Assembly: GCA_024137785.1 (NCBI GenBank)
Contig: JAHRHZ010000013.1
Coordinates: 58,418,051-58,482,050 of the forward strand
Source: Ginglymostoma cirratum
Lineage: Eukaryota
DNA: 64,000 bases
Direction of reading: 5' to 3'
In this document: piece by piece, positions 5,011 to 60,355 of the stretch
Layout: each line of letters opens with the position of its first letter
Numbering within the stretch: position 1 is the first letter of the stretch
The notes under the pieces: model-generated
Databases searched by the model: none
What the model was told of the DNA's origin: nothing
The model's input: only the letters and a program-made list of their open reading frames with translations
Position numbers and translations under genes: made by a program

Positions 5011-6059
5011 TCAAACAGTTTTTGTGTCAATTGACTGAATCATCCAGACTTTGATCATTTTCAGTCATCAGGACTATTTTCAGGTCTTGACCCAAAGCAA
5101 CAGCTTACATCCAGGATCACAGGCAAATTAGGGATGGTGAACGGGTTGTGAAGTTGGGAAGGGGAGCCAATGCATGACGCTGCAATGTTGGTTGTGTATG
5201 TGATGAGAGTTCTGCTGGTGTACATAATACATGAGAGGGCTGGAAAACACAGAGGAATTAAATAATAGAAGTTAATTGCTGCCATATCCTCACTACTTGC
5301 ACTAGTTTTTAGTGTAGTCTGCAGGAGATTGGAAGGAAATCGCATGCCATTCTGTTTATATGGTTCCCAGATGGCTCAATTATGAATGCTTGGCTGAGCA
5401 TCAATCCTTATTTATGAGTTTGCTCAGCAAGGGCTCTGTTTACACAATCTAAAGTGGAATCTTAGCCTTGATTGACATTTTTTTGGACTTACAGGGAGCC
5501 ATTTTTCTTTGCTCTGCTATTTTCAAAGTTAACATCTTTACTTGAAGAAGAGTAAGAGCTGTGAGTGAGGTAAAGCTTTTGAGATTGAAATTGTGAATGG
5601 TTCTGTCTGATTCTCACTTTTATGACATTGGATAAGCAGCAGGCTTTTTTCCAACATTTTTGAATATGTGTTTTTAAGTCAATTTCAAGACTTGCCATTA
5701 TATGGTACAATACGTCTTTAATCATACTGGATGTTTAGGTATGGAACAGGCCTGGGGCATGTAGAGCTGACATAGGAAGTGGTTAAGTGTGAGAAAAAAG
5801 CTAGATGGGCGAAGAAAAGAAGACTTGAAAGAGACAAAGTCCCAAAGAACCAAGGTAGGCTTTCTAACCAGTCTTCAGTGGCACTCATTCCCTTCCAAGC
5901 TATATCTGAACTGCCCCTGGGATCAGTTGGCACACCTCCTGCAACCCTGAATGATAAGTAATGATGCAGAACTCAGTTATGTAAGACTAGTCTGCTGAGT
6001 CAGGATTTTTCTTAAATCAAGCTTCTTACCTCAGCGGTGAAAACGTACTCTGTCGTACC

Positions 6060-6149
6060 TGATGAAGGGTTTAGGCCGGAAACGTCAAGTTTTCCTGCTC
6101 CTATGATGCTGCTTGACCTGCTGTGTTCATCCAGCCCCATGCTTGTTAT
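6060..6149 (+). mobile_element. Short Penelope-like (family A) insertion starting at a hammerhead core
   Basis: Perfect 12-bp TSD ctctgtcgtacc (6048-6059, 6150-6161). Core CTGATGA-A-GGGTTTAGGCCG-GAAA-CG-TC at 6059-6086. Confidence 0.8.
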
Positions 6150-8152
6150 CTCTGTCGTACCCTCTTCTTTTCCAAGCATCTTATATCTATGCTATCCTGC
6201 TGTTGATTCTTCAGCCATTGGAAACCATTTTCTTTATTTAATCTGTCTGAACTGTTCAACATTTTACACTTTTCTATCAAATCTCCTCTTAATCTTATCC
6301 CCTCTAAAGAAAACAATCCAGACTATTCAACTATTTAATAACTGGGGTTCTGAAGAAGTCATAAACAGATTCAAATCATTAAAGCTCTCCACGGATGCTG
6401 CCAAACTTGCTGAGTTTCTCCAGCACCTGCTCTGTTATCTGCATAAATACATGCCTATTCCTGGAATTATTCCAGGACGATACCCTTCTGTACACTGTCC
6501 AAAACCTTCATGCCTTCCTAATGCATGTTGCAGAGAATTGGGTGCAGCACTCCAGATGGAGTCAGTCTAGTGTTTTATGGATGTTTGGCTTTTCCTGGCT
6601 TTTAAACTTTGTGTTTATATTCATCAACACCAGGATCCCTGATGCTTTGTTAACTAGTCGGACTTTCTTCAAAGGTTTGTGCACAAATACCTCAGATATC
6701 TTTGTTCTTCTATCCCCTTTAAAATTACACCATTTAGCATATATTCTCTTTCCCTTTTCATCCTCTCACAATATGTCACCTCCTACTTCTACATAAATTT
6801 ATTCTTCATATTTTTCACTCATTCCAAAAGCCTATTTAGGTCTGCTTGAAGCCTATTAGCATCTTCCTCACTGTTCTTCACTGTTTTTTTCAGTTCCTGA
6901 CACTTCAGCTTACTTCTAGCTTCTTTTGGCACTTGATGTACAGTCCATAACAAGGTTATCACCCTGATGATGTCTCTGATCCAACCACTTGCCTAACTGC
7001 TTCTGGAGGTCTGTTCAGTTAGGGATACTAGTCAGGCAGGAGGACCAATTAAAGAAGCTGAGGCAGTGGGCAGCCAGCAACCCCACTAGGAGAGGTTAAA
7101 GCTGTCAATGTAGATGTGGTCTGTAAGGACATTTCAAGATGAAGGTACCCTCTGAAGAGTTCTTGAATTACTAAAAGCGTACCCACAACTGCCAGGCCAT
7201 CAATGTAGACCAAGAAATCTTTAGGTCACAGTTGTGGCCACTAGTCACCAAGCTTGTGGGTTTGGGAGGCTGGAATTAAAGGAACTGTCAATGGTCCCTT
7301 GATGTGACATTGGGAGGCCATCACTAGAAAGCTGGTGAGTGCCACACAATACAAGGGTGGGGGGGCACCACTTGATGTCAGGACAATCTTATGTCCATCA
7401 AAAATGAACATAAATTGAAGACTTAAAGTGCATAATTGGTTGCTTGCCTCATTGAGGAGCCTGACAAAATCCTTTCCCTCCCACTACTGGAAAATTCTTC
7501 CAAAGGTCAGAATGAATGTGGGAGCTATCCAGACCTATTTTCCCAGACCCCTTTCAGCCTCCAACCCTGTCTCCATTGGGCAGGGAAAGTCCAGTCCTTT
7601 GTGTCATCTGCAAGTTTTAAAATTATGCCTGTACTTTCAAGGCCAAGCCATTAATGAATATCACAAAGCTCTGGTTCTAAGGCTGAACCATTGGCAACTG
7701 TGTATCTTTCAGTGGTTTGAAAAATAGTCATCATTAAAACCCTATTTTCTATGCCTTAGCTAATTTTCTACACATGCTGCTACTGTCCTTTTAATCCTAT
7801 GCCTTTCAATTTTGCGAGTAAGACAGATGTATGCGCTTTGTCAATTACATTTTGAAAGTCCATGTTCATAATGACTGCATTGTTCACATTTACCCTGGCT
7901 GTTCCCTTATCAAAAAACTTAATCATGTTAATCAAACACAATCTGCCCTTAATAAATCCGTGCTCACATTTTATTAATCCATGCTTGTCCAAGTGGCTTT
8001 TGATTTTCTTCTCGATCACAACGTCTGAAGTTTCCCATTACTGATTTTAATCTGTCTGGCCAGTAATTACAAGGTTTATCCTTCTGTCCTTTTTTGTACA
8101 AGGGAGTAAGTTATAAAACTCGCCAGTCCTTTGGCACAGCCTCTGTATCTAA

Positions 8153-11828: not shown

Positions 11829-11904
11829 ATGCCTGTTATGAAAGGATTATTAGCGCCACAAAACACTTTCTTGGATACCATAGCAACGCGCTTTGATGGG
11901 ACAC
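11829..11904 (+). CDS. KCNH8: Coding exon 1 of an Elk-subfamily (Kv12) voltage-gated K+ channel, N-terminal PAS-cap
   Basis: aaaATG at 11829 translates to [25 protein letters not shown]+C (76 nt, phase 1), followed by a perfect GTAAGT donor at 11905. This matches the known Elk N-terminus shared by KCNH8 and KCNH4. KCNH8 is preferred because no exon 2 is seen in the next 52 kb. Family call is near-certain; paralog call about 0.75. Confidence 0.93.
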
Positions 11905-14565: not shown

Positions 14566-16088
14566 GTACCCCTGTACTGAATTATAATGTCTATTACTAA
14601 GATTAGTCCGTGATATTTAACCTTAAACTCATGAACCTTTAATAGATGTGTCTGTCCATGATAATGTTAGTAGGAGTGACTACTGCACAGTATTTGTGCA
14701 AAGAATATCTTCCATTATGTCATATGGCAAGAACATTTTGCTAAATGGGATAGGTTAAGAATAGATCTACCAGGTCAATACTGGGTATCCAGGGCATGAT
14801 GGGAGCCACTGGCAGCAGCAGAATCTATAATGATAATCTGGAACAGCATGGCTTGACATATTTCTCAGATTTCCAGCACCCTCAAACCATGGGAGATCAC
14901 ACCTGGCACAGAACCTGGTGCATTTGAAAATCAGGTACCAACCTGGTGAAACTATGGCACCGGACTCCACGCTAAACAGTGAAAGCAGCATTCTCTAGAC
15001 TGAGCTAAGCAATCACACAACCAGAAGTTTTGGTCATCACCCTGCCAGTGTTCAACCTATCCAATTTACTGCATGTTGTATCAAGAAGTGACAAAATAAA
15101 GCCTTTAGGAACCAACAACATTGCAGCTTTCATGTTGAAGATTGTATGGTACTGAGCTATCGGCACATTTAGCTAAGCTGTTTGCTTGCTGCTACAACAT
15201 GGGCATCTATCTGGCAATGTGGAAATAGAATCATAAAATGAATACAGAATTAAAGAAGCCCCAAGTCCAGCTCTCTGCAAGAACCACCCAGCTAATACCA
15301 CTGCCCTGCATTTCATCACAGATCTGCAATTTTTTTCTCTTCAGATGCTTATCAAATGCAGTTTGAAAGCTCTAATTTAACCATCCTCCATTAGACAATT
15401 GGTACAGCATTCCACTTCCTAACAAATTGCTGCATGACAGAAAAGTAAACCCAAAAAGTTGAAAATAAACTGTTCTGCCAATTGTCACCTTATTGGCCAA
15501 TACCCAATCACTAGCAGAGTGATAGAATGAATAATCAACAGTGCTTTAAGGCAACAATTAGTCACTAATACAGAAATTGGTGGAAAACTCAGCAGGTTTA
15601 GCAGCTTCTTTGGAAAGAAAACAGAGTCAACATTTTGGGTCCAGTAATCCTTCTTCAGAACTGACTTTTTTGGTTTGCTTACTCACTAATAATCGTCTCT
15701 CCAAAGTTCAATTTAGATTCTGCCAAAATCACTTGGATTTAGTAGAAATCAAATTCATGGTGTATACACAGACACAGGAGCTAAATTTGAGAGGTGAGAT
15801 GACCGTAATAGCTCTTGACATTAAAGCAGCATTTTAATAAATGGAGAAAATCCTCTTGTGGCTGAAATTATTTATGTGATTGTGTGAGATCAAAGACCTC
15901 AATATATGGTTATTGCTGTAGAATTTCTCAGGACATTGACGTTTTTAATCAACCTGTTCATATGTCTTACAATATAATCTGGAGTAGGTGGGAGGAGTAG
16001 GGATTCTAACATTGCACCACAAGGGCCCTAATTCTCAGAACATATTTTTTAAATTAAAAAAATTTGAACCCAGGCCTCCTGGCTCAGA

Positions 16089-16704
16089 TAAAAACTGAAA
16101 GAACTGCGGATGCTGTAAATCAGGAACAAAAACAAAGTTGCTGGAAAAGCACAGCAGGTCTGGCAGCATCTGTGAAGGACAAAACAGAGTTAACGTTTCA
16201 GGTCTGGTGACCCTTCTGAGAAGGGTCACCAGACCCAAAACATTAACTCTGTTTTTTCCTTCACANNNNNNNNNNNNNNNNNNNNNNNNNNNNNNNNNNN
16301 NNNNNNNNNNNNNNNNNNNNNNNNNNNNNNNNNNNNNNNNNNNNNNNNNNNNNNNNNNNNNNNNNNNNNNNNNNNNNNNNNNNNNNNNNNNNNNNNNNNN
16401 NNNNNNNNNNNNNNNNNNNNNNNNNNNNNNNNNNNNNNNNNNNNNNNNNNNNNNNNNNNNNNNNNNNNNNNNNNNNNNNNNNNNNNNNNNNNNNNNNNNN
16501 NNNNNNNNNNNNNNNNNNNNNNNNNNNNNNNNNNNNNNNNNNNNNNNNNNNNNNNNNNNNNNNNNNNNNNNNNNNNNNNNNNNNNNNNNNNNNNNNNNNN
16601 NNNNNNNNNNNNNNNNNNNNNNNNNNNNNNNNNNNNNNNNNNNNNNNNNNNNNNNNNNNNNNNNNGCTTTTCCAGCAACTTTGTTTTTGTTCTGTGTTTT
16701 TATT
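16089..16704. mobile_element. Penelope-like family B fold-back (inverted) insertion spanning an assembly gap
   Basis: Palindromic centre ggtctggtgacccttct-g-agaagggtcaccagacc. TSD cct(c/t)ctggctcaga at about 16075 and 16705. Confidence 0.8.
16266..16665. other. Assembly gap (400 N); identical-size gaps at 38073-38472 and 52793-53192
   Basis: Counted directly. Confidence 0.99.
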
Positions 16705-20569: not shown

Positions 20570-21065
20570 AAAAGCAAAATATTGCAGAATTAAAAAAAAG
20601 ATACTGCAAATACTCAACAGGTCTGCTAGGATCAATGGGAAGTGAAACAGTTCATATTTCAGATCTATGACTTTTGTCAGGAGTAGGAGAAATTGGAAAC
20701 AAAATCAGAAATTGTTGGAAAAAGTCTCAGCAGGTCTGGCAGCATCTGTGGAGAGAAAGGATAAATCAACGTTTAGGGTCGAGTGACCCTTCTTCATAAC
20801 AGGAGAAACCAGAAATACTAGAGGTTATATAGAAGTAAATGAAAGATGAGACACCTTGGGAAAAGGAACAAAAGGGAAGATCAAAAATGATAGAATAGAG
20901 AGTAGGTGAGATTAAATGTCAGAAGTTTCCAAGAGGGTTTGATTTTACAAAACACTGGATGCTAGAAATCTGAATTCTAAACAGCAAATGGTGGAAACAA
21001 CCAGCAGATCTTTTTAGCATCTGTAGAGGGAAATAATTTGACATTTTATATCGAAGACCTTTTCA
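20570..21065. mobile_element. Cluster of three decayed Penelope-like family B copies
   Basis: Repeated ctcagcaggtctggcagcatctgt...aacgttt.gggtc..gtgacccttcttca motif and degraded versions at about 20570, 20695 and 20945. Confidence 0.7.
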
Positions 21066-26864: not shown

Positions 26865-27500
26865 TGAAATGTATAATATTCTTAGGTGACTTAATAGGGT
26901 AGATATTGAGGGGTTATTTCCCGTTGTGAGAGAAACCAGAGAACATTATCTCAGAGTGAAGGGTTGTTCATTTAAGAGAGAGATGAGGGGAAATTTCTGC
27001 TCTCGGAGGGTAGTCAATCTGTGAAATTCTTCACCACAAAGAGCTGTAGAGGTTCAGTTGTTAAGTGTATTCAAGGCTAAGACAGACAAATTTTTAATCA
27101 GTAAGGAAATCAATGATTGTGGGGAAAAAAACAATATAATACAGTTGAGGTAACAAAGTGTGGAGTTGGAGGAGCACAGCAGGCCAGACAGCATTAGAGG
27201 AACAGGAAAGCTGACGTTTTGGGTCAGGACCCATCTTCAGAAATCTGAAATCAGAAATTCTTCAGATTCCTGAAGAAGGGTCCCGACCTGAAACGTCAAC
27301 TTTTCTGTTCTTCTGATGCTGCCTGGCCTGCTGTGCTCCTCCAGCTCCACACTTTGTTATCTCTGACTCCAGCATCTGCAGTTCTTGCTATCTCAATAAT
27401 ACAGTTGAGGATTGTCCGATCAGCCATGATCTCATTGAATAGCAGAGCAGATCAATGGGCTGAACGGCTTACCTCTGCTGCTATGCCTAAGGTCTCATAG
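26865..27500 (+). mobile_element. CR1 3' end interrupted by an inverted Penelope-like pair
   Basis: CR1 C-terminal/3'UTR sequence like 8850-9166; resumes after 27395. Confidence 0.8.
27151..27395. mobile_element. Penelope-like family A inverted pair with hammerhead cores
   Basis: Two ~95-bp arms in inverted orientation. TSD ataatacagttgagg on both sides. Plus-strand core CTGAAGA-A-GGGTC-CC-GACCT-GAAA-CG-TC at 27270-27297. Confidence 0.85.
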
Positions 27501-29299: not shown

Positions 29300-29437
29300 A
29301 CAGTTTTGAGGAAGGGTCATCAGACCTGAAACGTTAACTCTGTTTTTTCCTTCACAGATGCTGCCAGACCTGCTGAACTTTTTCAGCAGTTTTGTTTTTG
29401 TTCCTGATTCACAGCATCCGCAGTTCTTTCAGTTCTT
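29300..29437 (+). mobile_element. Penelope-like family B copy
   Basis: cagtt-TTGAGGA-A-GGGTC-ATCA-GACCT-GAAA-CG-TT-aactctg (core C3 mutated) followed by the family tail. Confidence 0.8.
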
Positions 29438-29966
29438 GTAACTTCCATGTTCCTTCATGAAGTAACGGCAATGAGAGCTGCAAAATCGTTACGGAAATTA
29501 GTTGACCCAGAAAACGTTATGCTCAGTCAGCACAGTACAATTCTGTTAGATTTCCAATGTACCTTAAACACTTTGGACTAGTATCTTTCGGATCTGAGAA
29601 TCTACTCATATAAATTAATCAGAGGCAATTTTCTTTCTCTCAGATGGAGAATCTATATAAACTGAGGATTGGTACATTTTAATTATTGTTTGATTCTAAG
29701 ATACATTCTGGAATAAGGTGGCAGATTTTTAAGGTAGTGATACTCATGGACCTATTTCTGAACCTTGAATATGGCATCCTAATTTCCATAGGGTTAAATT
29801 GGTCAGGAGCCCTCCTTATATAAACTAATCTGCCTGCTGGAGGTAGCCCAACTGGTGAGGCTGGAAGAGGAATCCTTTGGCATTTTTGGCTTTTAAACTC
29901 TGTTGCTTTTCATTTAAGAGGTAAAGGAAGTCATGGCAGCTTCTCCTAGAAGTCAGTAGTCCAAAG

Positions 29967-30135
29967 CAAAAACAGAAATTGCTGGAGAAGCTCAGCAAGT
30001 GTGGCATAATCCGTGAGGAAAAAACAGAGTTAACATTTTGAGTCCAGTGACCCTTCTTCAGAACAAATGAAGAGTTTCTCCAGCAATTTCTGTTTTTGTT
30101 TCAGATCTCCAGCATCTTCAGTGTTTTGTTTTATA
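29967..30135. mobile_element. Penelope-like family B inverted insertion
   Basis: 14-bp TSD tcagtagtc(c/t)aaag; arms in opposite orientation. Confidence 0.82.
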
Positions 30136-33769: not shown

Positions 33770-34286
33770 TGGGATAGTGGTGGTCTTGTGGTATCATCGC
33801 TGGACTGTTAATCCAGTGACCATGGCAATGTTCCAGGGACCTGGGTTTGAATTCTGCTGCAGCAGATAGTGGAATTTGGATTCTGGAATTAAGAATCTAA
33901 TGATGATCGTGAGTCAATTGTCTGAAAGCCCATCTGGTTTGTTAATGACCTTCAGGGGAGGATATCCACCATCCTTGGGTCTGGTAGCATCTGTGAAGGA
34001 AAAAACTGAGGAAGGGTACGGACCTGAAATATTAACTCTGTTTTTTTCCCTTTACAGATGCTGCCAGACCTGCTGAGCTTTTCCAGCAACTTCTGTTTTT
34101 GTTCTTGATTTACAGCATCCACAGTTCTTTTGGTTTTTATCTGCCGTCCTTACCTGGCCTGGATTACATGTGACTCCAGACTCCAGCAATGTGGTTGACT
34201 CTTAACTGTCCTCAGGGCAATTAGGGATGGGCAATAAATACTGCCTAGCCAGTGGCACCCTCATTCTGTAAATGAATAAAGAAAAA
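33770..34286 (+). mobile_element. tRNA-SINE family M interrupted at about 33978-34138 by a Penelope-like family B insertion
   Basis: SINE is collinear across the insertion; degenerate TSD atccaccatcctt / atctgccgtcctt. Confidence 0.82.
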
Positions 34287-37117: not shown

Positions 37118-37258
37118 ATCAGAGATAATAGGTACTGCAGATGCTGGAGAATCCGAGATAACAAGGTGTGGAGCTGGATGAGCACAGCAGGCCAAGCAGC
37201 ATCACAGGAGCAGGAAAGCTTGACGTTTCGGGCCTAGACCCTTCATCAGAAATGATCA
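37118..37258 (-). mobile_element. Penelope-like family A copy with intact hammerhead core
   Basis: Perfect 20-bp TSD tcaataataatgacccttgt (37098-37117, 37259-37278). Minus strand attt-CTGATGA-A-GGGT-CTAG-GCCC-GAAA-CG-TC-aag. Confidence 0.87.
37218..37253 (-). ncRNA. Putative minimal type-I hammerhead ribozyme
   Basis: All core nucleotides present (CUGAUGA, GAAA, GUC triplet), 4-bp stem II, palindromic ACGU in place of helix III, weak 3-bp helix I. Activity untested. Confidence 0.65.
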
Positions 37259-37489: not shown

Positions 37490-37680
37490 AGCAAGATGTA
37501 GAGCTGGATGAACACAGCCAAGCAGTATCAGAGGAGCAGGAAAGCTGATGTTTTGCGTCTGGACCCTTCTTCAGAAATGGGGGAGGGGAAGGGATTTCTG
37601 AAATAAATAGAGAGGGGGGAGGCAGATGGAAGATGGATAAAGGAGCAGATAGGTGGAGAGGAGACGGACAGCTCAAAGCT
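37490..37680 (-). mobile_element. Penelope-like family A copy with longer purine-rich pLTR segment
   Basis: Flanked by tatttgggtta repeats; core degenerate (GAAA>AAAA). Confidence 0.75.
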
Positions 37681-37755
37681 ATTTGGGTTATTTGGGTTGT
37701 TATGTTATCATGTTATTATTTATCACAAAGGGAGTTGAGTACAAACGTAAGTACA

Positions 37756-38763
37756 AAAACAGAAGTTGCTGGAAATGCTCAGCAGGTCTGGCAGCTTTTG
37801 TGAAGAAAAAAATCAGAGTTAACGTTTCAGGTCCGGCAACCCTTCCTCAGAAATGATGGTAGCAGGAAAACGTCAGTTTATATGCAGAAAATAGGGAGGG
37901 GAATGGAATAGGGCAAAAAATGATAGGAAGAAGTATAGAGCCCAAAGGAGTTGATAACGATCTGGCTAGGAGGGTGAATAGCTGTTAATGGGGACTGTTA
38001 GTGACTAACGATAGGTGGTGTGTAATGGCAGGCTATGTGATAACAAGGCCTGGTGTGTGGGGTAGGGGCTGGNNNNNNNNNNNNNNNNNNNNNNNNNNNN
38101 NNNNNNNNNNNNNNNNNNNNNNNNNNNNNNNNNNNNNNNNNNNNNNNNNNNNNNNNNNNNNNNNNNNNNNNNNNNNNNNNNNNNNNNNNNNNNNNNNNNN
38201 NNNNNNNNNNNNNNNNNNNNNNNNNNNNNNNNNNNNNNNNNNNNNNNNNNNNNNNNNNNNNNNNNNNNNNNNNNNNNNNNNNNNNNNNNNNNNNNNNNNN
38301 NNNNNNNNNNNNNNNNNNNNNNNNNNNNNNNNNNNNNNNNNNNNNNNNNNNNNNNNNNNNNNNNNNNNNNNNNNNNNNNNNNNNNNNNNNNNNNNNNNNN
38401 NNNNNNNNNNNNNNNNNNNNNNNNNNNNNNNNNNNNNNNNNNNNNNNNNNNNNNNNNNNNNNNNNNNNNNNNTCCATTCCCCTCCCTATTTTCTGCATAT
38501 AAACTGACGTTTTCCTGCTACCATCATTTCTGAGGAAGGGTTGCCGGACCTGAAACGTTAACTCTGATTTTTTTCTATTGTTACCTCATCCCCCTTTCTA
38601 TTTTCTGCAGATCAAACAACTACCATCAGTTCGGAGGAAGGGTCACCAGACCCGAAACGTTATCTTTGATTTTTTCTTCACAGATGCTGCCAGACCTGCT
38701 GAGCATTTCCAGCAACTTCTGTTTTTGTTCCTAATTAACAGGATCTGCAGCTCTTTCAGTTTT
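37756..38763. mobile_element. Composite Penelope-like family B insertion (one inverted plus two tandem pLTR-like units) spanning a gap, inside a CR1
   Basis: 16-bp TSD tacaaa(c/t)gtaagtaca (37740-37755, 38764-38779). Hammerhead cores at 37821-37850 (-), 38530-38559 (+), 38632-38661 (+). Confidence 0.85.
38530..38559 (+). ncRNA. Putative minimal type-I hammerhead ribozyme in channel pre-mRNA sense orientation
   Basis: CTGAGGA-A-GGGTT-GCCG-GACCT-GAAA-CG-TT; 5-bp stem II with G-U pairs; helix I weak. Confidence 0.55.
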
Positions 38764-39500
38764 TACAAATGTAAGTACACTTGTGGAATCACATCTGGAG
38801 TACTCTTCACAGTATCGGTCTTCTTACTTAAGCAAGACTGCAAATGCATTGGAAGCATTTCAGAGAAGGTTTACCAGACTAATACCTGGAATAGGGAGAG
38901 GTAGTAGGAACTGCAGATGCTGGAGAATCTGAGATAACAAGGTGTAGAGTGGATAGTCAAGGCCCGAAACGTCAGCCTTCCTGCTCCTCTGATGCTGCTT
39001 GGCCTGCTGTGTTCATCCAGCTCTACACCTTGTTATCCTTGGAATAGGGAGTTGTCTTATGAAACAAGACTGGACAGTTTAGACTTGTAACCATTGGAGT
39101 TTAGAAGAGTAAGAGATAACTTGATTAAAGCAGGCTCTTGTATAATGTATAGAATCCTGAAGTGTCTTGATAGGATAGATGTGGAAAGGAAGATTTCCTG
39201 TAATAAGAAAATCAAGAATTGGGGGTCACCCATTTAAAATAGAGATAAGGAATCTTTCTTTCTCAAGGGTTCACGAGTCTTTGGAACTCTGCTTACAACA
39301 ATTTTTCAGGAAGAATATCCTTGAATATATGTAAGACAGAGCTAGATAGATTCTTGTTAAGAAAGAGGGTAAAAGATTATCAGGGTTGGCAGTAATGTGC
39401 ATTTGAGGTTATAATCAGATTAGCTGTGATCTTATTGAATGGTAGAGCAGGCTGAAAGCATTAAATGACCTACTACTGCTCTGAAGTTTTATGTTCATAT
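38764..39500 (+). mobile_element. CR1 3' end with a nested family A insertion (about 38897-39037)
   Basis: CR1 C-terminal motifs; TSD c(c/t)tggaataggga around the nested element. Confidence 0.8.
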
Positions 39501-41600: not shown

Positions 41601-41609
41601 TTAGAGATA

Positions 41610-41923: not shown

Positions 41924-44900
41924 CTTTGAACTGCCAATGTTGGAGTCTGAGATAACACAGTGTGGAGCTGGAGGAACACAGCAGGCCACGCAGGATCAGA
42001 GGAGCATGAAAGTTGATGTTCTGGGTTGGGACCTTTCTTCAGAAAAAAGAAATTTAAACATGTTAGTGATCCAATTGCAAACTAACATCTTGTCATTCTA
42101 CTGGGGACAAGCTGTACTCTCAGCATCTAAATATTATAAATGAACATATTGCACTATTAGCTTATCAGTCAGCAAACACCATTGTTCATTACTTTAAATG
42201 GTGCATTGAAATAGGCATGGTTGATTTTCCAGTGTAATTTATTATAATGCTGATTGATCATCCATGTTAGACTATAACTTATTTCCTTGTGACCCTAACT
42301 TTAATTGATTTTTGCCATTTCAAAATTAGTCACTCATTGTGTTTTACTCATCATATTGTCAGGATCAACAAATGTCCAGATTGAACAAGGCTTTTTCGGA
42401 AACAGCCCACACCCTTAGTTTTTCACCACATCTCTTTCAGTTGTGAACATTGTAAAAGCTGGCATTGTATGAGTTTCCTTTGTTCTGCCTACGCACACTG
42501 AATAAGCGCTGTCAGGTTTTACACGAGGCATGAGAAAGATGAATGCTTCAAAGTGTCACACATCATCACCTCTAATTGCTGTTGGACAGCTATTATTTTT
42601 ATTTAAATAAAAGATGTTGTATGTGGTTCTTACGATCTGCTTAAACACACTAACATAATGTGATTCCAGTTCTTGCTGTTGCTATTATACACAATGATGG
42701 GCAGGGGAAATGCTCTTGTGTTTTCTGCACGCTATCCTCCAATTTGAATATTTGAATTTTTAGCTTATAGCTTTCAATGTTTCTTATAAATCATTGAAGA
42801 TAGCCTTGTTTGTATTTTTGAACTGCTATGAATTTGGTCATACTAATTCTCGGCTCGGCAGCAAGTATTTTTTGCTACTTTTTTTTATGTGACTTCTATT
42901 TAAAAGATTGCCAGAAATATGCAAACATACAAAGAGGTAAAGAAGGAATAAAATAAATGGATTGTCACAGCAAAGTGTATTCTTATCCTGATTTTTGTTC
43001 ATATTTTGCAGGAGGATTTTTTTGAGGATAGAAATTGATACATATTTTATCTATTATTCAGGCATGAAAGGGAAGCAGTGGGTACTAAATTCTGTGTGAG
43101 ACTTACAGCCTCATTATTCCTGTAGAAACAGTGAATGATTTTTATTTCCCACCTAGAGAATGGAAGCTGATTGTACATTCATTGCTCCCTGGTTGGTATC
43201 AGCTAACTCAATACAGATCAAAGATTGAACCTGGGATTTTGCTGGTCTGGAAGGAATTGGTCAGTAGTCAGAACTTTCCCACTAACCAATAACCAAATGC
43301 CATTATAATTTAATGCTATGAGGGTTAGCTTGTCGAAATAAATACAAAGTAGGAAATTTCACTACATTGGGAAAAGGGTCATTTCGGTTACTGGGTAGAT
43401 AACAATCGTATAGTTTAACACCTGAACTGCATCCTCTTGTCCTTGGGAGATGAGAGTGAATGGGTAGTAATGGGAGCAGGGGAACGGTGTTGGTTCAGGA
43501 CCTGAATCAAGTAGAAGGTAAAAGAAAGGATGATTATCCCTCTTCTTGGAGCAGTATATATTCATGTAGCATTGGCAATCAATCCTTCTGAAACTGATTC
43601 GCCATGTGTGGCTATTCGTGGTCAAAATGTTTTATGTTTAGACCCCACCTAGTACTGAGATGGCCTAAAAGAGGTACTGAAGGCAAAATCCCTGAAACTG
43701 CCCCGGAATTATGGTGTAGGGAGCAGTGTACATTGATGATAGCTGGTATGGGTGCCAATGGTAGTTCGCAGGCACAACAAATGGTGCTTCTTGCTGGAAA
43801 TTTATGAATGAAATAAGTACTTCACAAGATTTTGGTACATTCTGGATTCCGCCCAGAGCTATAAAATTCTTGCAATCTGTTGGGTGGATTTGCATTCCTG
43901 GGATTCTTGCAGTTTATGAACTGCAGTATTTTGCTTTAAATGTTTTGGCTTAGTCAACGATGCAACACCATGTTTTCTGAGATTGGAAGATGAGGAGGTG
44001 CAGTATGTTTTCGTTAAAACACATCTAAAGGTCCCCTCAGGTCATGAAAAGTCATAAATGCAAGTTCTTTCTCACCATTCTGTGCTAAGGACAACTAAAT
44101 ACAATCTTCAGACACTGCTACTCCCTGCAGTCATTTGCAAACAAGGGAAGAAATAATTGATCCCTTTTCAACAGCTTCAGCTTTCCAGTGATTAGAGTTC
44201 CAGTCAAACCTGATGAGGGTGAATTTGACATAATTTCTCGGGTTGCATTGGAGCTTCCAAGCCATTATTTTTCATGCATAGAAAGCAACAACAAATGGAA
44301 GATCCACTGAAAAATAATAAAAGATAAAGCATATTTCATCCATATTTTCTAATTCCTTGTCTGGAAATCCATGGGCTCTGATCACAATATTGGTTCGATA
44401 GACCGTGGTTAAACATTCTGTAAAAACACTTTTTGTCACAGCCTTACCTTGGATAATTAGATAATTGCATAATTATGAAATTACATTATTATGAAACTCA
44501 TAGGTTCGTGTAGTTAGGTTATAGGTAGTTGTATTTTTAAGCAAACTTGCTGAACTTTAACTGTTAGTAGCTGATCATAGCCTTAATTTCTTTTCCTAGA
44601 TTAAAAGTTATCATAGTCCTCCCAGATCACAGAACAGCTCTCTCATTAGAGAGAGATGACTGATGGTGGTTTAACCTGAGAATCATCACACCTCAAGTCA
44701 GAATAAAGAGGTTGAGAAAGAGAATCCTTCATAGTAAACTCAACTATGTACGGGCATTGAACCCAGGCAGTTTCTGTTAGGATGTATTGTAAACTAGCTC
44801 TCCAGCCAACTGCACTAACCAACCTCCTATTGCCAGGTACCAAAATGTTGGGAAGTACTTATTTCATCAGGAAAGATCCTGCCTAAAGTTCAGTTTAAGC

Positions 44901-45169: not shown

Positions 45170-48037
45170 TGGGGCTGAAGGTGTTATATTTGAATGCATA
45201 CAGTATAAGAAAGAAGATAAATGAACTTGTGGCACAGGACGAAATTGACAGATAATGATGTGGTGGGCATCACGGAGATGTGGCTGCAAGGGGATCAGGA
45301 TTGGGAGCTAAATATCCAAGGATATACAACTTATCGAAAAGAACGGCAGGTGGGCATTGGGGTTGGGGTTTCCTCATTAGTAAGAAAGGAAAGACAGTGG
45401 AACAGCAATAGCAGGAGTTTCTAGGAGTAATTCAGGAAACACAGCAAAAAAACATCCCCTGGAAAAAGAAGCATGGTACAGGGAGGTTGAGGTGACCATG
45501 ACTGACTAAGCAAGTCAGGGATAGTGTAAAAGTAAAAGAGAAAGCATATAACGTGGCGAAAAGCAGTGGGAAACCAGAGGATTGGGATGCTCAGAAAGAC
45601 AAACAGAGGTCAACAACAAAAAGAAATAAGGAGGGAGAAGATTAAATATGAGGGTAAGCTAGCAAGTAATATAAAGAGGACAGTAAGAGCTTCTTTAGAT
45701 ATGTAAAGGGCAAAAGAAAGGCAAAAGTGGACATTGGACCACTGGAAAATGACGCTGGAGAGATAGTAGTGGAGAATAAGGAAATGGCTGAAGAACTGAA
45801 TAATTGCTTTGCATCAGTCTTCACAGTGGAAGACATAAGTAATATCCTAAAAATTCAAGAAAGTCAGGGGGCAGAGCTGAGTATGTGGCCATCACCAAGG
45901 AGAAGGTGCTAGAAAAACTGAATGGATTGAAGGTGGATAAATCACCTGGACCAGATGGACTATACACCCCAAGGTTCCTAAGGAGTTAGCTGAAGGGATA
46001 GTGGAGGCGTTAATGATGATCTTCGGGAATCGCTAGAGTCAGGGAGGGTCCCAGAAGACTGGAAAATCGCTAACGTGACACCCCTGCTTAAAAAGGGAGT
46101 AAGGCAAAAGACTGAAAACTACAGGCTGATTAGCCTAACCTCAGTCTTGGGTAAGATTTTAGAGTCCATTGTGAAGGATGAGATTTCTGAATACTTGGAA
46201 GTGCATGGTAAAATAGGGCAAAGTCAGCACAGCTTCATCAAGGGGAGGTCATGCCTGACAAATCTGTTAGAATTCTTTGAAGAAGTAATGAGCAGGGTAG
46301 ACCAAGGAGAGCCAATGGGTGTTATCTACCTGGACTTCAAGAAGTCCTTTGACAAAGGGCTGCACAGGAGGATGCTGAGTAAGATAAGGGTCCATGGTGT
46401 TAGAGGAAAGGTGCTATCATGGATAGAAGATTGGCTGTCTGGTAGAAAGCAGAGAGTGGGGATAAAAGGGTTCTTCTCAGGATGGCAGCCAGTGACAAGT
46501 TGTGTTCCACAAGGGTCAGAGTTGGGACCACAACTTTTCACTTTATACATTAATGATCTAGATGAAGGAACTGCGGGCATTCTGGCTAAGTTTGCAGACG
46601 ATACAAAGACAGGTGGAGGGACAGGTAGTCTTGAGGATGTGGGGAAGTTGCTGAAGGGTTTGGACAGGTTAGGAGAGTGGGCAAAGAAGTGGCAGGTGGA
46701 GTCCAACGTGGGAAAGTGTGAGGTCATACACTTTGGTAAGAAGACTAGAAGCGTGGACTATGTTCTAAATGGGGAGAAAATTCAGAAGTCTGAAGTGCAA
46801 AGAGACTTGGGAGTTCTAGTCCAGGATTCGCTCACGGTAAAAACCAAAAGAACTGCAGATGCTGTAAATCAGGAACAAAAACAGGAGTTGCTGGAAAAGC
46901 TCAGCAGGTCTGGCAGCATCTGTGAAGAAAAAAATCAAAGTTAATGTTTTGGGCCCAGTGACCCTTCCTGAGAATTGATAGTAGCTGGGGAAACGTCGGT
47001 TCAGAAACAGAAAATAGAGAGGGGGATGGGGGAGGAAGTAAATGATGGGATAGAGCCCATAGAGAGAGAAGAGCAGTTGGATAGACAAAGGAGTTGATAA
47101 CAACATGGCTAAGATTAATGTAGTGCTGTTACACACTACTTATTGTTAGTTGCTAACCATCCCCATTAATACCTATTCACCCTCTTAGCCAGATCATTAT
47201 CATCTCCTGTGTCTATCCAACTGCTCTTCTCTCTCTCAACTTTTTCCCAGCTACCATCAGTTCTAAGGAAGGGTCATCAGAACCTAAACGTTAACTCTGA
47301 TTTTTTTCTTCACAGATGCTGCCAGACCTGCTGAGCTTTTCCAGCAACTTCTGTTTTTGTTCTCTCAAGGTAAACATGCAAGTTAAGTCAGTAGTTAGGA
47401 AGGCAAATGCCACTTTGGCATTTATTTCGAGAGAACTTGAATATAAAAGCAGGGATATACTTCTGAGTCTTTTTAACGCTCTGATCAGGCCACTTTTGGA
47501 GTATTGTGTGCAGTTTTGGGCCCAATATCTCAGGAAGGATGTACTGGCACTGGACTGGGTTCAGAGGAGGTTCACGAAAATGGTACCAGGAATGAAAAGC
47601 TTAACATATGAGGAACGTTTGAGGACTCTGGGTCTATATTTGATGGAGGGGGTAATCTAATTGAAACTTACAGAATACTGAATGGTCTGGACAGAGTGGG
47701 TGTTGGAAGATGTTTCCATTTGTAGGAGAGCCTAGGACCCAAGGACAAAGCTTTAGAGTAAAGGGAAGACCTTTTAGAATGGAGATAAGGATAAACTTCT
47801 TCAGCCAGAGAGTGGTGAATCTATGGAATTCACGTCCACAGAAGGCTGTGGAGGCCAGGTCATTGAGTATATTTAAGATAGAGATTTAGATAGGTTCTTG
47901 GTTATCAAGGGGATCAAGGGTTATGGAGAGAAAGTGGGAGAATGGTGTTGAGAAACTTATCAGCCATGATTGAATGGCGGAGCAGAATTGATGGGCGGAA
48001 TGGCCTAGTTTCTGCTCTTATGTCTTATGGTCTTATG
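45170..48037 (+). mobile_element. CR1 LINE ORF2 (APE endonuclease start, internal deletion, RT, 3'UTR), pseudogenised
   Basis: VVGITEMWL (EN); ORF 46075-46944 NYRLISLTS...YLDFKKSFDK...VPQGSELGP...KFADDTK; tail tcttatggtcttatgg. Frameshifts and a nested insertion present. Confidence 0.95.
46842..47359. mobile_element. Penelope-like family B inverted insertion inside the CR1 RT
   Basis: 15-bp TSD ttcgctcacggtaaa / ttctctcaaggtaaa (46827-46841, 47360-47374); CR1 reading (QDSL.V) resumes after it. Confidence 0.87.
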
Positions 48038-48855: not shown

Positions 48856-48890
48856 AGAAGAAGTCTTGAAGTAAAGTAAAGAAGTCTTGT

Positions 48891-50715: not shown

Positions 50716-52062
50716 TATCTATTTCCTCTGCTTCTTTGGACTCCTGCTCCTTTCCATTTGTTCTTTCTGCTTTGCATCCTCCCCCTTTCCACTCCCTCCA
50801 ATCTCTTCCATTTCTTTCCTCATGTCAGTTATCGAGGTGGCTTCTCTTCACAAATTCTTCCTGATCTGCTGAGGTTTTCCAGTTTACTTTGTTTTCCTTT
50901 CAGATTCAAGCATCCGCTGTGCTTTCTTTCAAATTGGCATTTACATCTTCGTTGCTTTCAGTTGTCAGAGAGAATGTTAAGAGAAGAATCAATGGTCTTA
51001 GACACTAGAGGTCACTGTTGCAGCCGCACAGTAAACAATTATCACAGCACTGTTGCTGTGTGGAGTCTTGCTTTCATCCACAATTGGTTCCGGTAACAAC
51101 ATCTTTATAGCAATAATTGGCCTTGACATGTTTATGGATTGGCGTTTCATTGCTCAATATTAATATTGAGTATATTAATGCATTTGGTGGAAGTTCCTTT
51201 GCTTTCATACAAGAGGTGTTGACATTTTAAAATTTTGAATATTGAACAAAAGAATTTGGGGACCAGACACTAATTGTTTGTTACCAGTATTGCTGAGTTT
51301 GAATTCATTGATTAGAGAACTATTCGCTCGTGCAATCCTCTTCCATACAGTTTGCCAAATAATTAAGAGGTACATAAATAAAACTAGGGCCATTGGAAAG
51401 CACGAAAGGTCTTTCATTTATTAGTACTGTTCTGGGTTATGCATCTGAACTAATTGATGACAGAAATGTGCAAAAAAAAATTTCTGCTTGCTAAGGATTT
51501 CTAAGGGTCTTATTAGCAGTGAATTTGGGCAGCATTACATCGGAGAAGTGTACAGTGGCTCTGGCCCACTACTTTGCAAAGTGCAACATAAAACTGAACA
51601 TACTGTGTTCAGTTGTCAAGGTGATCAATCAAATACCTTGTGTACATCAGATTGTAAAAATAGAACTTATCAACCAAGTTTCATAATAAACACAATTAAG
51701 GGTTTATTGTCAAAAGAAAATTTACTTTGCAAGATACTAGATGCAATGATTGGTTAACACGATCAGTAATATGGTACTATAGATGTTTACCCCGCTAAAT
51801 ATCCCTAAAGCACTCACATTAACACATGAAAACTCTTCAGGAATTAAAGGGAAAATTTTCTTTGCAGAGATTGGCTTTCTGAAAAGAAAACACTTTGGCC
51901 AAGGGGGTTTCTTGAAAGCTAAATAATAAAGGAAACGATATTTCGGAGTCTGTGGCTCTCATGTACTGCGTATGTGGGCAAGTCAGTAAAGCCTCACGGT
52001 CACAGTGTGCTCAGGATGTACAATGTTGAGGTGTTCTTTCAACCATTTCAAAAAGACAAATA

Positions 52063-52722: not shown

Positions 52723-52724
52723 GA

Positions 52725-53223
52725 GATAACAAGGTGTGGGGCTGGATGAACACAGCAGGCCAAGCAGCATCATAGGAGCAGGAAAGCTTGACNNNNNNNN
52801 NNNNNNNNNNNNNNNNNNNNNNNNNNNNNNNNNNNNNNNNNNNNNNNNNNNNNNNNNNNNNNNNNNNNNNNNNNNNNNNNNNNNNNNNNNNNNNNNNNNN
52901 NNNNNNNNNNNNNNNNNNNNNNNNNNNNNNNNNNNNNNNNNNNNNNNNNNNNNNNNNNNNNNNNNNNNNNNNNNNNNNNNNNNNNNNNNNNNNNNNNNNN
53001 NNNNNNNNNNNNNNNNNNNNNNNNNNNNNNNNNNNNNNNNNNNNNNNNNNNNNNNNNNNNNNNNNNNNNNNNNNNNNNNNNNNNNNNNNNNNNNNNNNNN
53101 NNNNNNNNNNNNNNNNNNNNNNNNNNNNNNNNNNNNNNNNNNNNNNNNNNNNNNNNNNNNNNNNNNNNNNNNNNNNNNNNNNNNNNNNNNNNGATTCTCT
53201 AGCATCTGCAGTACCTTTTATCT
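52725..53223. mobile_element. Penelope-like family A inverted insertion spanning a gap
   Basis: TSD cttcttcattactctga on both sides; arms in opposite orientation either side of the Ns. Confidence 0.8.
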
Positions 53224-53532
53224 CTTCTTCATTACTCTGATAGGTTTCACTGATGTCATGGGTTTCCTTTTCAGAAATGAGAGAGATCAGCTGGGCAGAT
53301 AGTGTGCAACAAGCTTTCTTCCGATTTATCTTATTTGTAGACTTTTTGTTCAAGATGAACAAGATAAAATCAAGAACATCTTCAAGCCAGTCACTATACA
53401 AAATAGCCCCAGCAGGGTAAACAGCAAAACAAACAGTTATCACCAGAAAAGTTGTCATGTAATTTCTACAAAGCCTTGTTAAAAAAGATTTTCAATATCG
53501 ACAGTGAACTTTCAATGACCATTTTTAAAGAT

Positions 53533-58244: not shown

Positions 58245-58409
58245 CCCTTAGCCAAGGCTTTCCTGTTTGGCCCGGGTTAACAACCCCAATCAAATATCTT
58301 GTAGTGAATGAGGTCCACCTGGTCCCAATCACTACATCCTTTCCCCACTAAGTCTGGGGATGCAGGCCTGGTCCTTAGCTTGTAGCTTCTCTTGCTGTTT
58401 CAGCTGAAA
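58245..58409 (-). repeat. Internal third copy of the 3'UTR-PPT-LTR-start junction inside pol
   Basis: Aligns to about 56857-56997 and, for the LTR part, to 61527-61614 (ggctttcctg...cctggtcccaatcactaca). Confidence 0.9.
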
Positions 58410-60109
58410 CAGCTGTTTCAGTTTTGCTAGGACAGGATCTTTCTGTGTCCACAGTCAGATATTGTCCGGGGTGACTGGAAGGGTGTCCAGAAAGTTTAAA
58501 ACCAGAATGGGACGAACCATCACTGGAGTATCTGCCAGTGGGAGGTGGCTCAAGGCATCTGCATTAGCCACTTGGCTTCCTGGACGGTGTTCTAGCTTGT
58601 AATTGTACGCGCTGAGAATAAGGGCCCAATGCTGAACTCTACCGGAAGCTATGGGCGCCTTGTCTTCCTTCATCAGCCCTAGCAAGGGTTTGTGATCTGT
58701 TACTCTGACAAATTTCCACCCATAAAGGCACTGGTGGAACTTCTTCACACCAAAGATGACCACCAAACCTTCCTTCTCTATCTGGGAATACTTCCGTTCA
58801 GCATCAGCCAAAGTCTGGGAAGCATACACTGTTGGGAGGTCCTCTCTGTTGGGTCACCGGTAAGCCAACACCACCCCAATACTGTACAGGGAGGCATCAC
58901 ATGTCAGTAGTACCTGTCATGTCAAGTCATAGTAGGCCAACATCGTAGATGACAATAGTTTCCTTCTTCCCGTCCCCAAAGGCTACTTCTTGGCTCTATG
59001 ACCATTTCCAAGGCTGACTGTTTTTCAATTCCAGGTGTAAGGGTGCCAAGGTGGAGGCCAGGTTATGTATGAATTTTTCATAATAATTCATGAACCCAAT
59101 GAAAGACCTAAGCTCCCGTACAGATCTGGGAGCTGGGGCTCTTCTGATTGCCTCCACCTTCTCTTCGAGCGGGTGTAGCCCGTTTTTGTCAACTCTTTAA
59201 CCCTAGTAGTTCACTTCGGGTGCCTGGAACACACTTTTTTTCCCTCCTAAGACGCATGCCCGCCTATGAGAAATGTTTAAGCACTATGTCCAAGTTCTCC
59301 AAGTGCTCTTTATTTCTTGCATATTGGTACAAACCATTATGGGTATTACTTCTAGCACTCTTCATCCAGTCGCAATTGCAAGTAGGTGTGGCTCATGCAC
59401 AGCTTCATAAAGGACAGCCGCCTCCACCACCCCCCCCCCCACCCCCAACCCCACCAACTTTGCGTACAAGTCCTCTGTGCAAGGGACCGGGTATTTATCC
59501 AGCTGTGAGAAATGGTTTACCGTTTGCTTAAAATCCCCACAAAGGCAAACTGAGCTGTTCGGCTTCACAATCAGTACGACCAGTCCATTCTGCAAACTGC
59601 ACTGGTTTGATGACTCCTCTGCTGTCCTGCCTCCTGATTTCTGCATCTACTTTTGCCCACAAGGCAAATGGCACCAGGCGGGCCTTGCAAAATCTCGGAA
59701 TTGCCTCCTGGTCAACATGTAAACTGGCTTTGGTCCCTTTGATCTGCCTAAGTGCTTCTTGAAGAACTCCTGGGTATTTCACTAGGACTTCACTAAAGCA
59801 GCCAGTTTCCAACCGAAAAAGTTTGAGCCAATCAAGGTGAATCTTTCTCAACCAATTCCGTCTCAAAAGGTCTGGGCCTGAGCCTTTTACTACCACCAGT
59901 GGTATCTGCACAAACTGCTTCTCATAGGATGCTGGAACCGAAGTCACACCCTATAACTTGCACCGCTTCCCCAGTGTATGTTCTCAGTGAGGCTGAGGGT
60001 TTGTGCAAGCTCAAAGTTTGGAGTCCCAAATGAATCTTATTTAAGACAGATTCTGCAACCAGAGATACAGGAACTGAATGACCTTTTAACCAAACATGAA
60101 TTTTAATTG

Positions 60110-60355
60110 GAACTAGCAAGACCTGCAGATGCTGGAGTAGAGTCAACGCAGTGTGGAGCTGGAGGAACACAGCAGGTCAGGCAGCATCAGAGGAGCAGGG
60201 GATGAGTCGGCTGTGTAGGCGGGTGCTGCGAAAGGAGGCATGGCTGTAGTACTGCGTTTGTTTCAGTATGTGGTTGAAGTCCTGATGAAGGATCTAGGCT
60301 CAAAATGTTGACTCTCCTGCTCCTCTGACGCTGCTTCCAGCTCCACACTGTACTA
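60110..60355. mobile_element. Penelope-like family A inverted insertion inside the Gypsy gag/protease junction
   Basis: Flanking repeat aattttaatt(g/t)g; inverted arms around a ~78-bp unrelated middle; degenerate core CTGATGA-AGGATCTAGGCTC-AAAA at 60281. Confidence 0.78.

Follow-up and report, generated by a model that had tools for sequence, protein, structure and literature searches.

Two Families of Decaying, Hammerhead-Bearing Repeats in a Shark Locus Are Probable 3' Ends of Penelope-Like Elements

Introduction

Two related families of short repeats, here called A and B, recur through a 64,000-nt stretch of shark DNA (the window), and both carry a sequence that resembles the hammerhead ribozyme. 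What these repeats are, and how they came to be inserted, is the question raised by the locus. Minimal type-I hammerheads are carried by the pLTRs of metazoan Penelope-like elements (PLEs), according to portions of Cervera and de la Pena (2014; PMC4209133), and each unit of the tandemly repeated animal retrozymes contains a hammerhead (PMC7229834). Sections of two papers (PMC8557442; PMC3846280) describe PLE insertions as showing 5' truncation, an adjacent inverted copy, a 30-40 bp tail that is often one-ended, target-site duplications (TSDs), and assembly problems. The tail is the distance between two RT start sites, and the PLE enzyme cuts and extends both strands, with uncleaved RNA as its main substrate (PMC11167929). 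An initial annotation of the window read the repeats as Penelope-mobilised and retrozyme-like. We find that A and B are very probably the pLTR 3' ends of two related endonuclease-bearing PLE families, inserted through target-primed reverse transcription of the PLE type and now in decay.

Repeat Census and Genomic Setting

The window contains 21 insertion sites of A and B, spanning 6059..60354 (Table 1); 17 are clear, in agreement with the approximate count of the initial annotation, and four more are decayed. The kinship of the two families, also proposed there, is borne out by their consensus 3' modules, which are identical at 91 of 129 aligned positions. Other parts of that description need revision. 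The locus is not saturated, the insertions making up 3,732 non-N bases (5.9% of the sequenced bases in the window), nor are the copies young: they stand a median of 11.6% (A) and 9.0% (B) from the local consensus, median pairwise identity is 82%, and CpG decay is heavy. Arms within single insertions match each other at 379 of 418 positions. The copies are old, decaying, and mostly catalytically dead.

Sites downstream of 11904 probably lie in the first intron of an EAG/KCNH gene, the first coding exon of which is listed in Table 1. No strand bias against sense-strand hammerheads is seen in this host intron (eight plus, ten minus).

Table 1. Sites of repeat families A and B in the window, with the neighbouring channel exon
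Feature	Position	Strand	3' end	TSD	Remarks
A solo	6059..6149	+	short	12 bp, 6048-6059 / 6150-6161	5' start at core; 11 core residues intact; G10.1/11.1 mismatched; lacks helix I
Decayed B-like copy	6348..6435	+		none found	
First coding exon, EAG/KCNH-family potassium channel gene	11829..11904	+			GT donor follows
B copy	15571..15678	-	short	13 bp, 15558-15570 / 15679-15691	Core dead (G12A); ~12-nt 5' stub resembles inverted tail end (9-nt match only, not significant)
B head-to-head pair	16089..16704		minus long, plus short	14 bp, 16075-16088 / 16705-16718	Palindromic junction near 16216; N run in interior
Decayed B-like copy	20595..20682	-			
B solo	20693..20800	-	short	8 bp, abutting (borderline)	Core dead
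Decayed 3'-module fragment	20956..21033	-			
A head-to-head pair	27151..27395		minus short, plus long	15 bp, 27136-27150 / 27396-27410	Minus arm G12A; plus arm core intact, lacks helix I
B solo	29300..29438	+	long	none found	C3U; full 4-bp helix I
B head-to-head pair	29967..30135		minus short, plus long	14 bp, 29953-29966 / 30136-30149	Plus arm 5'-truncated
B 3' fragment	32146..32230	+	long	none found	Lacks hammerhead
B head-to-head pair	33977..34140		plus long	none found	Minus arm cut short; plus arm core present, 15.2/16.2 = U/A, lacks 5' helix I strand
A solo	37118..37258	-	long	20 bp, 37098-37117 / 37259-37278	Core 37249-37222; helix II 4-5 bp; helix I 3 bp; best-preserved minimal hammerhead
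A copy	37490..37684	-	short	14 bp, 37476-37489 / 37685-37698	Core dead; ~110 nt pyrimidine-rich sequence upstream
B head-to-head pair	37756..38763		minus short, plus long	16 bp, 37740-37755 / 38764-38779	Long upstream arms; central N run; minus arm core intact (37850-37821); plus arm holds a partial tandem, with hammerheads at 38530 (intact) and 38632 (U4G), spacing 102 nt
A head-to-head pair	38899..39039		minus long, plus short	12 bp, 38887-38898 / 39040-39051	Both arms 5'-truncated
A solo	41927..42045	-	intermediate	none found	Adjoins SINE-like repeat; core dead
B head-to-head pair	46842..47359		minus long, plus short	15 bp, abutting, 2 mismatches (borderline)	In LINE RT remnant; 130-160 nt upstream arms; both cores dead
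Decayed 3'-module fragment	50842..50927	+		none found	
A head-to-head pair	52725..53223		minus short, plus long	17 bp, 52708-52724 / 53224-53240	Central N run
A head-to-head pair	60109..60354		minus long, plus short	10 bp, 60099-60108 / 60355-60364	Plus arm dead; ~78 nt unique sequence separates arms

Insertion Anatomy

TSDs scoring at least 10 flank 11 of the 19 sites tested (the decayed copies at 20595..20682 and 20956..21033 stand outside the test), whereas 14 of 2,000 random site pairs reach this score; two further sites have borderline abutting TSDs and six have none. TSD length ranges from 8 to 20 bp with a median of 14. Candidates at 32146 and 50842 (score 8) were discarded because they do not abut the element. 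The 3' ends adjoin the TSD directly, with neither poly(A) nor a tandem or simple-repeat tail, and no target preference for AT is evident (62% AT versus 59% in the background).

Of 25 informative arms, 24 have a 3' end that belongs to one of two classes about 36 nt apart, at +89..94 or +126..131 in A and at +90..103 or +130..135 in B. Nine head-to-head inverted pairs are present, eight of them inside a single TSD, and each of these eight carries the tail on exactly one arm, one short and one long (p ~0.004 if the pairs are independent). Palindromic junctions occur at 16216 and at 27243-27268. Three N runs cover the centres of three pairs.

Variable TSDs, 5' ends of differing extent, head-to-head inverted arms, and a tail of about 36 nt on one arm match the published anatomy of PLEs, and the Penelope-mobilised reading, which holds, is thereby placed on stronger grounds. 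In the parts of their descriptions used here, endonuclease-bearing PLEs (Penelope/Poseidon and Neptune, with Anolis Poseidon, PMC11167929, and Adineta Penelopes, PMC3846280, as comparison systems) have in common with the shark repeats 5' truncation, head-to-head inverted copies, a 30-40 bp tail on one end, TSDs, partial tandems, a pLTR hammerhead, and palindromic junctions; they differ in their TSDs, the examples given there being 8-10 bp and thus shorter than the shark median, and in that the shark families are known here without an ORF.

Each PLE end would consist of a pLTR-type minimal type-I hammerhead followed by a 3' module of about 100 nt. If insertion proceeds as it does for the anole PLE in vitro, a PLE RT/GIY-YIG protein may bind the 3' module, cut both target strands, and prime cDNA at two internal start sites. 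Two cDNAs joined 5'-to-5' would yield an inverted pair, and a single cDNA would yield a solo copy. Uncleaved RNA would serve as the template; putative hammerhead cleavage would probably be weak, taking place as a dimer or with help from protein.

The Hammerhead and Its 3' Module

The consensus of both families reads CUGANGA-A-[G..C helix II]-GAAA-CG-U-H in type-I order, and the hammerhead core recognised in the initial annotation stands up to a test against chance. Descriptor searches returned six core strings in the window (mean 0.43, maximum 2 in 200 dinucleotide shuffles), five of them with a helix II of at least 4 bp (mean 0.02, maximum 1) and three that also have a helix I of at least 2 bp (mean 0.005, maximum 1). 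Several predicted details are present: the AGUU/AACU helix I of family B; an extra base after A9 in all 16 aligned complete cores, A in 15; and the self-complementary ACGU in place of helix III, with CG at 15.2/16.2 in 10 of 16 cores, no helix III loop, and C>T or G>A transitions in the other six. The 10.1/11.1 pair is G-C in ten, G-U in three, and broken in two of 15 distinct rows. Free positions vary, N7 being U, A, or G in 3, 7, and 6 copies and H17 being C or U in 6 and 10, never G.

Intact cores are a minority and not, as had been stated, a feature of many copies. All 11 catalytic residues are kept in 5 of the 16 aligned complete cores, an alignment from which a sixth intact core (34006, plus strand) was omitted since it lacks the 5' strand of helix I, and only the core at 37249 (minus strand) combines an intact core, G10.1-C11.1, and helix I. 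CpG positions are altered in 20 of 64 cells (17 by C>T or G>A) versus 14 of 272 at non-CpG positions; this decay leaves most copies dead, so that counts of hammerhead strings overstate the number of active ribozymes. Non-CpG core cells depart from consensus less often (7/190) than the rest of the module (178/1856; p=0.005), and this lower divergence suggests that selection acted on the hammerhead in the source elements.

Support from base-pair covariation was dropped. The initial annotation held that stem II usually stays paired; it does so only by way of one-sided transitions with no excess over shuffles, none of the five pairs is changed on both sides, and no covariation measure beats shuffles in 15 related rows. 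In helix I two of four pairs are changed on both sides, again nothing beyond shuffles in the same number of rows. A stem-loop common to A and B is predicted in the 3' module of about 100 nt that follows each hammerhead, and none of its 15 pairs is altered on both sides. An Rfam scan of the window returned no hammerhead at E<=10. The miRNA-like Rfam matches are hairpins, four of which are inverted pairs.

Nearest-neighbour folding, a model that leaves out tertiary contacts and protein, gives helix I a probability of at most 0.003 in monomers and places the double-hammerhead fold 15-31 kcal/mol above the dimer minimum. By these energies the active fold would not be favoured, which counts against the PLE reading. 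Also counting against it are the lack of two-sided changes in helix II and in the 3' stem-loop, the negative Rfam scan, the six tested sites where no TSD was found, and the absence of a PLE RT or GIY-YIG match from the window and from the protein searches; the arms, moreover, are non-independent samples, and HMM seeds were taken from core-bearing copies.

The minimal hammerheads of PLEs, in the part of PMC4209133 that lists them, share with the shark sequences CUGANGA, an extra base before helix II, G10.1-C11.1, GAAA, a self-complementary 15.2/16.2 without a helix III loop, and a helix I of 3-4 bp; they too are mostly dispersed singles, with opposite-strand neighbours 100-700 bp apart. The shark helix II of 4-5 bp differs in lying at the short end of the range listed. 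Chondrichthyans are absent from the part of Fig. S3 covered and, by search terms, from two supplementary files of that study.

Search for a Linked PLE Protein

As the initial annotation had observed, neither a Penelope RT nor a GIY-YIG ORF is visible: none of 158 stop-free frames of at least 70 aa in the window matches GIY-YIG, and the two RVT_1 matches there lack PLE motifs. The RT remnants in the window are presumably of the LINE class, on the basis of Pfam and known motifs. Since the copies are truncated, the absence of a PLE ORF from the window is expected. A word-index search of longer proteins for a link between the module and a PLE protein left none of 24 candidates significant, and a profile search with the module found five short or unrelated proteins, none with an RT or GIY-YIG family. 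Family B sequence is present in a whale shark gene model (P0002). Two other hits (P0005 and P0006) proved to be chance matches with no likeness to the window. No reading frame is open across both A and B, unlike Anolis Poseidon, whose ORF starts inside the hammerhead (PMC11167929).

5' Ends and Alternative Origins

The 5' ends are less easily accommodated. Fifteen of 26 visible ends fall within -7..+9 of C3 in the catalytic core. The downstream truncation rate would place about 1.1 ends there, and the excess persists at ten times that rate; in this tally several ends are fixed by 2-4 matching bases, and the six downstream ends are manual readings. The cluster coincides with a hexamer that resembles an initiator and also forms helix I, and we found no published description of such a hexamer or of 5' ends clustered at the core. 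This pattern is unlike random truncation of a long RNA and counts against the reading of A and B as PLE 3' ends.

The cluster is one argument that most short copies derive from a discrete, non-coding, SINE-like pLTR derivative of about 100-140 nt, whose 5' end lies a few bases upstream of the core and which PLEs mobilise in trans. The starts of TSD-bounded solos, at 0, -3, and about -7, and the absence of a linked ORF agree with such a master, which could coexist with PLE 3' ends; it corresponds to the non-autonomous origin proposed in the initial annotation, but involves no circles. We consider it rather unlikely. Five arms reach from 57 to at least 222 nt upstream, with sequence common to two independent long B insertions; moreover, the same cluster would follow from an autonomous mRNA with its start at this point, if RT primed on the 5' pLTR, or from RT stalling and fold-back at the self-complementary start of the core (as at the two palindromic junctions), and the short matches and hand-read ends weaken the tally itself.

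Non-LTR retrozymes, whose hammerhead units would be cut from tandem transcripts, circularised, and re-inserted, are improbable here. Animal retrozymes (PMC7229834; bioRxiv 10.64898/2026.07.22.740005) resemble A and B in being short and non-coding, with a type-I hammerhead and kinship to PLE pLTRs; the 2026 preprint reports them from one chondrichthyan, tied to PLE pLTRs, and the partial tandem at 38530/38632 has two hammerheads. The animal elements, however, consist of tandem units in head-to-tail order, which are processed into monomers and circles, whereas the shark copies occur as scattered solos or as head-to-head pairs; these have TSDs, fixed 3' ends with tails, and uncut cores, and show no circular permutation. 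No tandem array occurs in the window, where the single partial tandem has two units, one with a mutated core, and the six neighbours that share a strand and lie within 600 nt represent separate insertions, the exceptions being that tandem and a decayed neighbour (20682/20797). None of the 26 visible 5' ends lies at the cleavage site near +28, the nearest starts being about +34 and +38, and the hammerhead here is minimal where characterised animal retrozymes have canonical type-I motifs. With no arrays and no copy starting at the cleavage site, the term retrozyme-like used in the initial annotation does not fit.

It is highly improbable that A and B are MITE-like DNA transposons or LINE-dependent SINEs with an incidental hammerhead match, for although inverted pairs inside a TSD resemble TIR elements and neither covariation nor an Rfam hammerhead was found, the arms end about 36 nt out of register around variable centres, TSDs are not of fixed length and bound solos too, no tRNA gene was called (a weak test for decayed heads), 3' ends have no poly(A) or tandem tail, and the motif exceeds chance and fits the published PLE consensus.

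Returning to PLE 3' ends, we tentatively offer, as a possible but doubtful elaboration, a joint reading of both ends. Transcription of these shark PLEs would begin about 4 nt before C3, and the initiator there would double as the 5' strand of helix I, placing the ribozyme at the extreme 5' end of the transcript; two long copies have a TATA-like box about 30 nt upstream of this start. Short copies would arise when cDNA synthesis primed on that 5' pLTR runs off at the cap, the single tail of each pair would record a dimeric RT that primes the two target strands from different start sites, and family B would also have an upstream anti-core strand that holds the ribozyme off.

Implications

Families A and B are shark members of an already known kind: the association of PLEs with hammerheads, the tail, and the inverted copies have all been published, so the finding mainly adds shark examples. 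Shark genomes seem rich in short, TSD-bounded PLE insertions in which both ends can be read exactly, and such insertions would form a natural dataset on how inverted pairs and tails are formed and on where PLE RNA starts relative to the ribozyme.

Repeat Families and Insertion Architecture

Motif scanning, self-comparison, and profile searches seeded with copies from within the window identified 21 sites, spread from position 6059 to 60354, that belong to two related repeats (17 clear sites and four decayed fragments), which occupy 3,732 non-N bases, or 5.9% of the sequenced window. This agrees with the initial annotation, which had described two related families in about 17 insertions; the consensus 3′ modules (the ~100 nt after the hammerhead) of families A and B are identical at 91 of 129 positions. 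Its description of the elements as recent is not supported by the median divergence from local consensus, 11.6% in A (12 arms, or single repeat copies) and 9.0% in B (15 arms), or by the median pairwise identity among arms of 82%; subfamily mixing makes these values overstate the divergence. Paired arms within single insertions match at 379 of 418 positions (eight pairs), which is a cleaner clock than consensus divergence if both arms were copied from one template.

A search for target-site duplications (TSDs) covered 19 of the 21 sites. Eleven scored at least 10 (null: 14 of 2,000), two further sites have borderline TSDs but abut an element, and none was found at the other six; TSD lengths range from 8 to 20 bp (median 14). 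Head-to-head pairs of inverted arms occur at nine sites, eight of them enclosed by one TSD, and each of these eight is therefore a single event. After arms were trimmed at the TSD or at the end of the profile, the 3′ ends of all but one of the 25 informative arms (24) fall into two classes ~36 nt apart, the long class carrying this extra tail, and every TSD-enclosed pair (8/8) combines one short-end with one long-end arm (p about 0.004 if independent). A predicted 3′ stem-loop can be folded in A and B alike, its outer stem closing within the tail; covariation was not found in this shared structure. Five arms extend upstream by 57 to at least 222 nt of pyrimidine-rich sequence, such sequence being common to the two long B insertions, one arm carries two hammerheads 102 nt apart, and three pairs contain a central run of 400 N bases.

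The pair at 37756–38763 has one hammerhead in its minus arm and two in its plus arm, the first identical between arms, and the 3′ modules carry a common private variant. This pattern suggests that the template jumped at the T-run, that gene conversion took place, or that assembly produced the difference. The identity of the two arms across 103 nt may reflect youth, conversion, or assembly. Another TSD-bounded pair encloses ~78 nt between its arms (60200–60277) that match nothing else in the window, possibly captured sequence.

The Hammerhead Motif

The window motif shares the extra base, the G10.1-C11.1 pair, and the palindrome that define the minimal hammerhead in PMC4209133. A minimal type-I descriptor found six core strings in the window, five with helix II of at least 4 bp and three of these also with helix I of at least 2 bp, compared with means of 0.43, 0.02, and 0.005 in 200 dinucleotide shuffles; an Rfam scan of the window returned no hammerhead at E ≤ 10. 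We aligned the 16 arms in which the motif is complete and its 5′ flank present, excluding 6350+, 16216+, 16217-, 20682-, 34006+, and 38955+, in which the 5′ part is junction-cut or too decayed. All 11 core residues are kept in five arms (6059+, 27270+, 37249-, and the two arms 37850- and 38530+, which belong to the same insertion), and only 37249- among these also has G10.1-C11.1 and helix I.

At the four CpG positions, 20 of 64 cells are changed, and C>T or G>A makes up 17 of these changes; non-CpG positions show 14 changes in 272 cells. The initial annotation had held that stem II usually stays paired; this impression arises from the CpG-decay pattern, since none of the five helix II pairs is altered on both sides and no covariation measure exceeds shuffles. 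Selection is indicated by another comparison: at non-CpG core positions 7 of 190 cells depart from consensus, whereas elsewhere in the module 178 of 1,856 do (p = 0.005, although the copies are not independent samples). Position N7, which is unconstrained, is U in three, A in seven, and G in six copies, and H17 is C or U in every one. This pattern fits a hammerhead that was maintained in source elements and has decayed in the inserted copies.

Nearest-neighbour folding predicts a helix I probability of at most 0.003 and places the double-hammerhead fold 15–31 kcal/mol above the dimer minimum (six copies tested), so that the active fold is disfavoured by these model energies. Long B arms carry, ~20 nt upstream of the core, a segment that can pair with the GAAACGU stretch of the hammerhead, and the core is sequestered in the predicted fold. 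This anti-core segment is present in two independent B insertions and absent from 38632 and 47263; it may serve as an off-switch or be left over from an old inversion.

5′ Ends near the Core

Relative to the first core residue (C3), 15 of 26 visible 5′ ends lie within -7 to +9, where the rate of truncation downstream would give ~1.1, in a tally in which several ends rest on 2–4 bases and short arms escape detection. Because none of the 26 lies at the cleavage site, near +28, the template RNA was probably uncut. The six bases preceding C3, which also form helix I, fit the initiator pattern TCAKTY in six of the nine arms having that flank (background 0.2% of sites). Both the 37574 arm and the 37850/38530 insertion have a TATA-like box ~30 nt upstream, which is absent from 38632, 46972, and 47263. 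The cluster, of which a literature search found no description, may correspond to the start of transcription, to a discrete short master, or to a point of reverse transcriptase (RT) stalling and fold-back. About 25 nt past the cleavage site, family B shows a polypyrimidine tract that ends in CAG and is followed by ATG (29345–29365 and equivalent B positions), which resembles a 3′ splice site; family A has no such tract.

Protein Matches, Host Gene, and Other Repeats

No GIY-YIG match was found among 158 stop-free frames of at least 70 aa in the window, and two protein searches found no Penelope-like element (PLE) protein linked to the repeat module. Both RVT_1 matches lack PLE motifs and look LINE-type; one of the two is interrupted by the 46842–47359 pair. 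Family B sequence occurs in a gene model of the whale shark (up to 85% identity across 26 residues), and a further protein record, P0003, has matches to the two arms of one pair, which supports a shark-wide family.

A KCNH-family (EAG/KCNH potassium channel) exon, which we take to be of the ELK subfamily, precedes eight plus and ten minus hammerhead arms. Intron 1 of this gene probably makes up the remainder of the window; a short motif search of the window found no second exon. Among other repeats, the inverted repeat is possibly a young TIR element or an inversion, the SINE-like repeats resemble shark tRNA-derived SINEs, and the 60109–60354 pair lies in or beside the LTR-retrotransposon-like remnant.

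Anti-core segments and other features of the window
Feature	Position	Strand	Remarks
Anti-core segment	37865-37875	-	Long B arm
Anti-core segment	38505-38515	+	Long B arm
Anti-core segment	46987-46997	-	Long B arm
LINE-type RT remnant (presumed)	33033-33401	-	RVT_1; in 15-member repeat group
LINE-type RT remnant (presumed)	45994-46941	+	RVT_1; in 15-member repeat group
KCNH-family first coding exon	11829-11904	+	GT donor follows; best PDB matches KCNH2/KCNH7
Inverted repeat	53533-53831, 55429-55727		299 bp, 96.7% identical, ~1.6 kb apart
Imperfect palindrome	19723-19957		235 bp (69%), outer ends better matched; MITE-like, outside families A/B
LTR-retrotransposon-like remnant	57490-60804	-	Decayed; RNase H and weak integrase remnants at 57490-58853
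SINE-like repeats	35729-36067, 41611-41926, 33777-33976 and similar		200-350 bp; two PLE ends abut them
Minisatellite	48891-49226		Degenerate, 28 bp, 12 copies
Repeat, two copies	741-1673, 62783-63740		~950 bp

Comparison with Known Elements

Animal retrozymes are defined as tandem units (PMC7229834; bioRxiv 10.64898/2026.07.22.740005) and are reported in one chondrichthyan (bioRxiv 10.64898/2026.07.22.740005). The elements fail in those retrozyme features that could be tested. The initial annotation had proposed Penelope-mobilised, retrozyme-like elements; the retrozyme part falls on these tests, and the Penelope part stands on the TSDs, inverted pairs, and one-arm tail.

PLE insertions are described as 5′-truncated, frequently with an adjacent inverted copy, have a 30–40 bp tail often on one end only, and are troublesome for assemblies (PMC8557442). 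Inverted pLTRs lie within 8–10 bp TSDs, one with a 31-bp tail; their junctions are palindromic, and the pLTR contains a TATA together with an initiator-like sequence (PMC3846280). The anole PLE protein, a predicted dimer, cuts and extends both strands of its target, begins reverse transcription at either of two internal positions, by which the tail is defined, and uses uncleaved RNA as substrate; its hammerhead cleaves only with protein (PMC11167929). Minimal hammerheads occur singly and as opposite-strand neighbours, with low dimer activity (PMC4209133). A full-text search found no paper describing shark PLE hammerheads; Repbase or Dfam may already contain these families, and shark repeats of this kind are commonly annotated as Penelope.

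We propose that the 3′ module would be bound by the PLE RT/endonuclease, which would cut the target with a stagger and start cDNA synthesis at one or the other of two sites; where both strands were primed and the products joined 5′-to-5′, pairs with one tail each would result. Alternatively, one cDNA may fold back and then re-prime. The elements behave like the ends of endonuclease-bearing PLEs with the known minimal hammerhead, and very probably are such ends.
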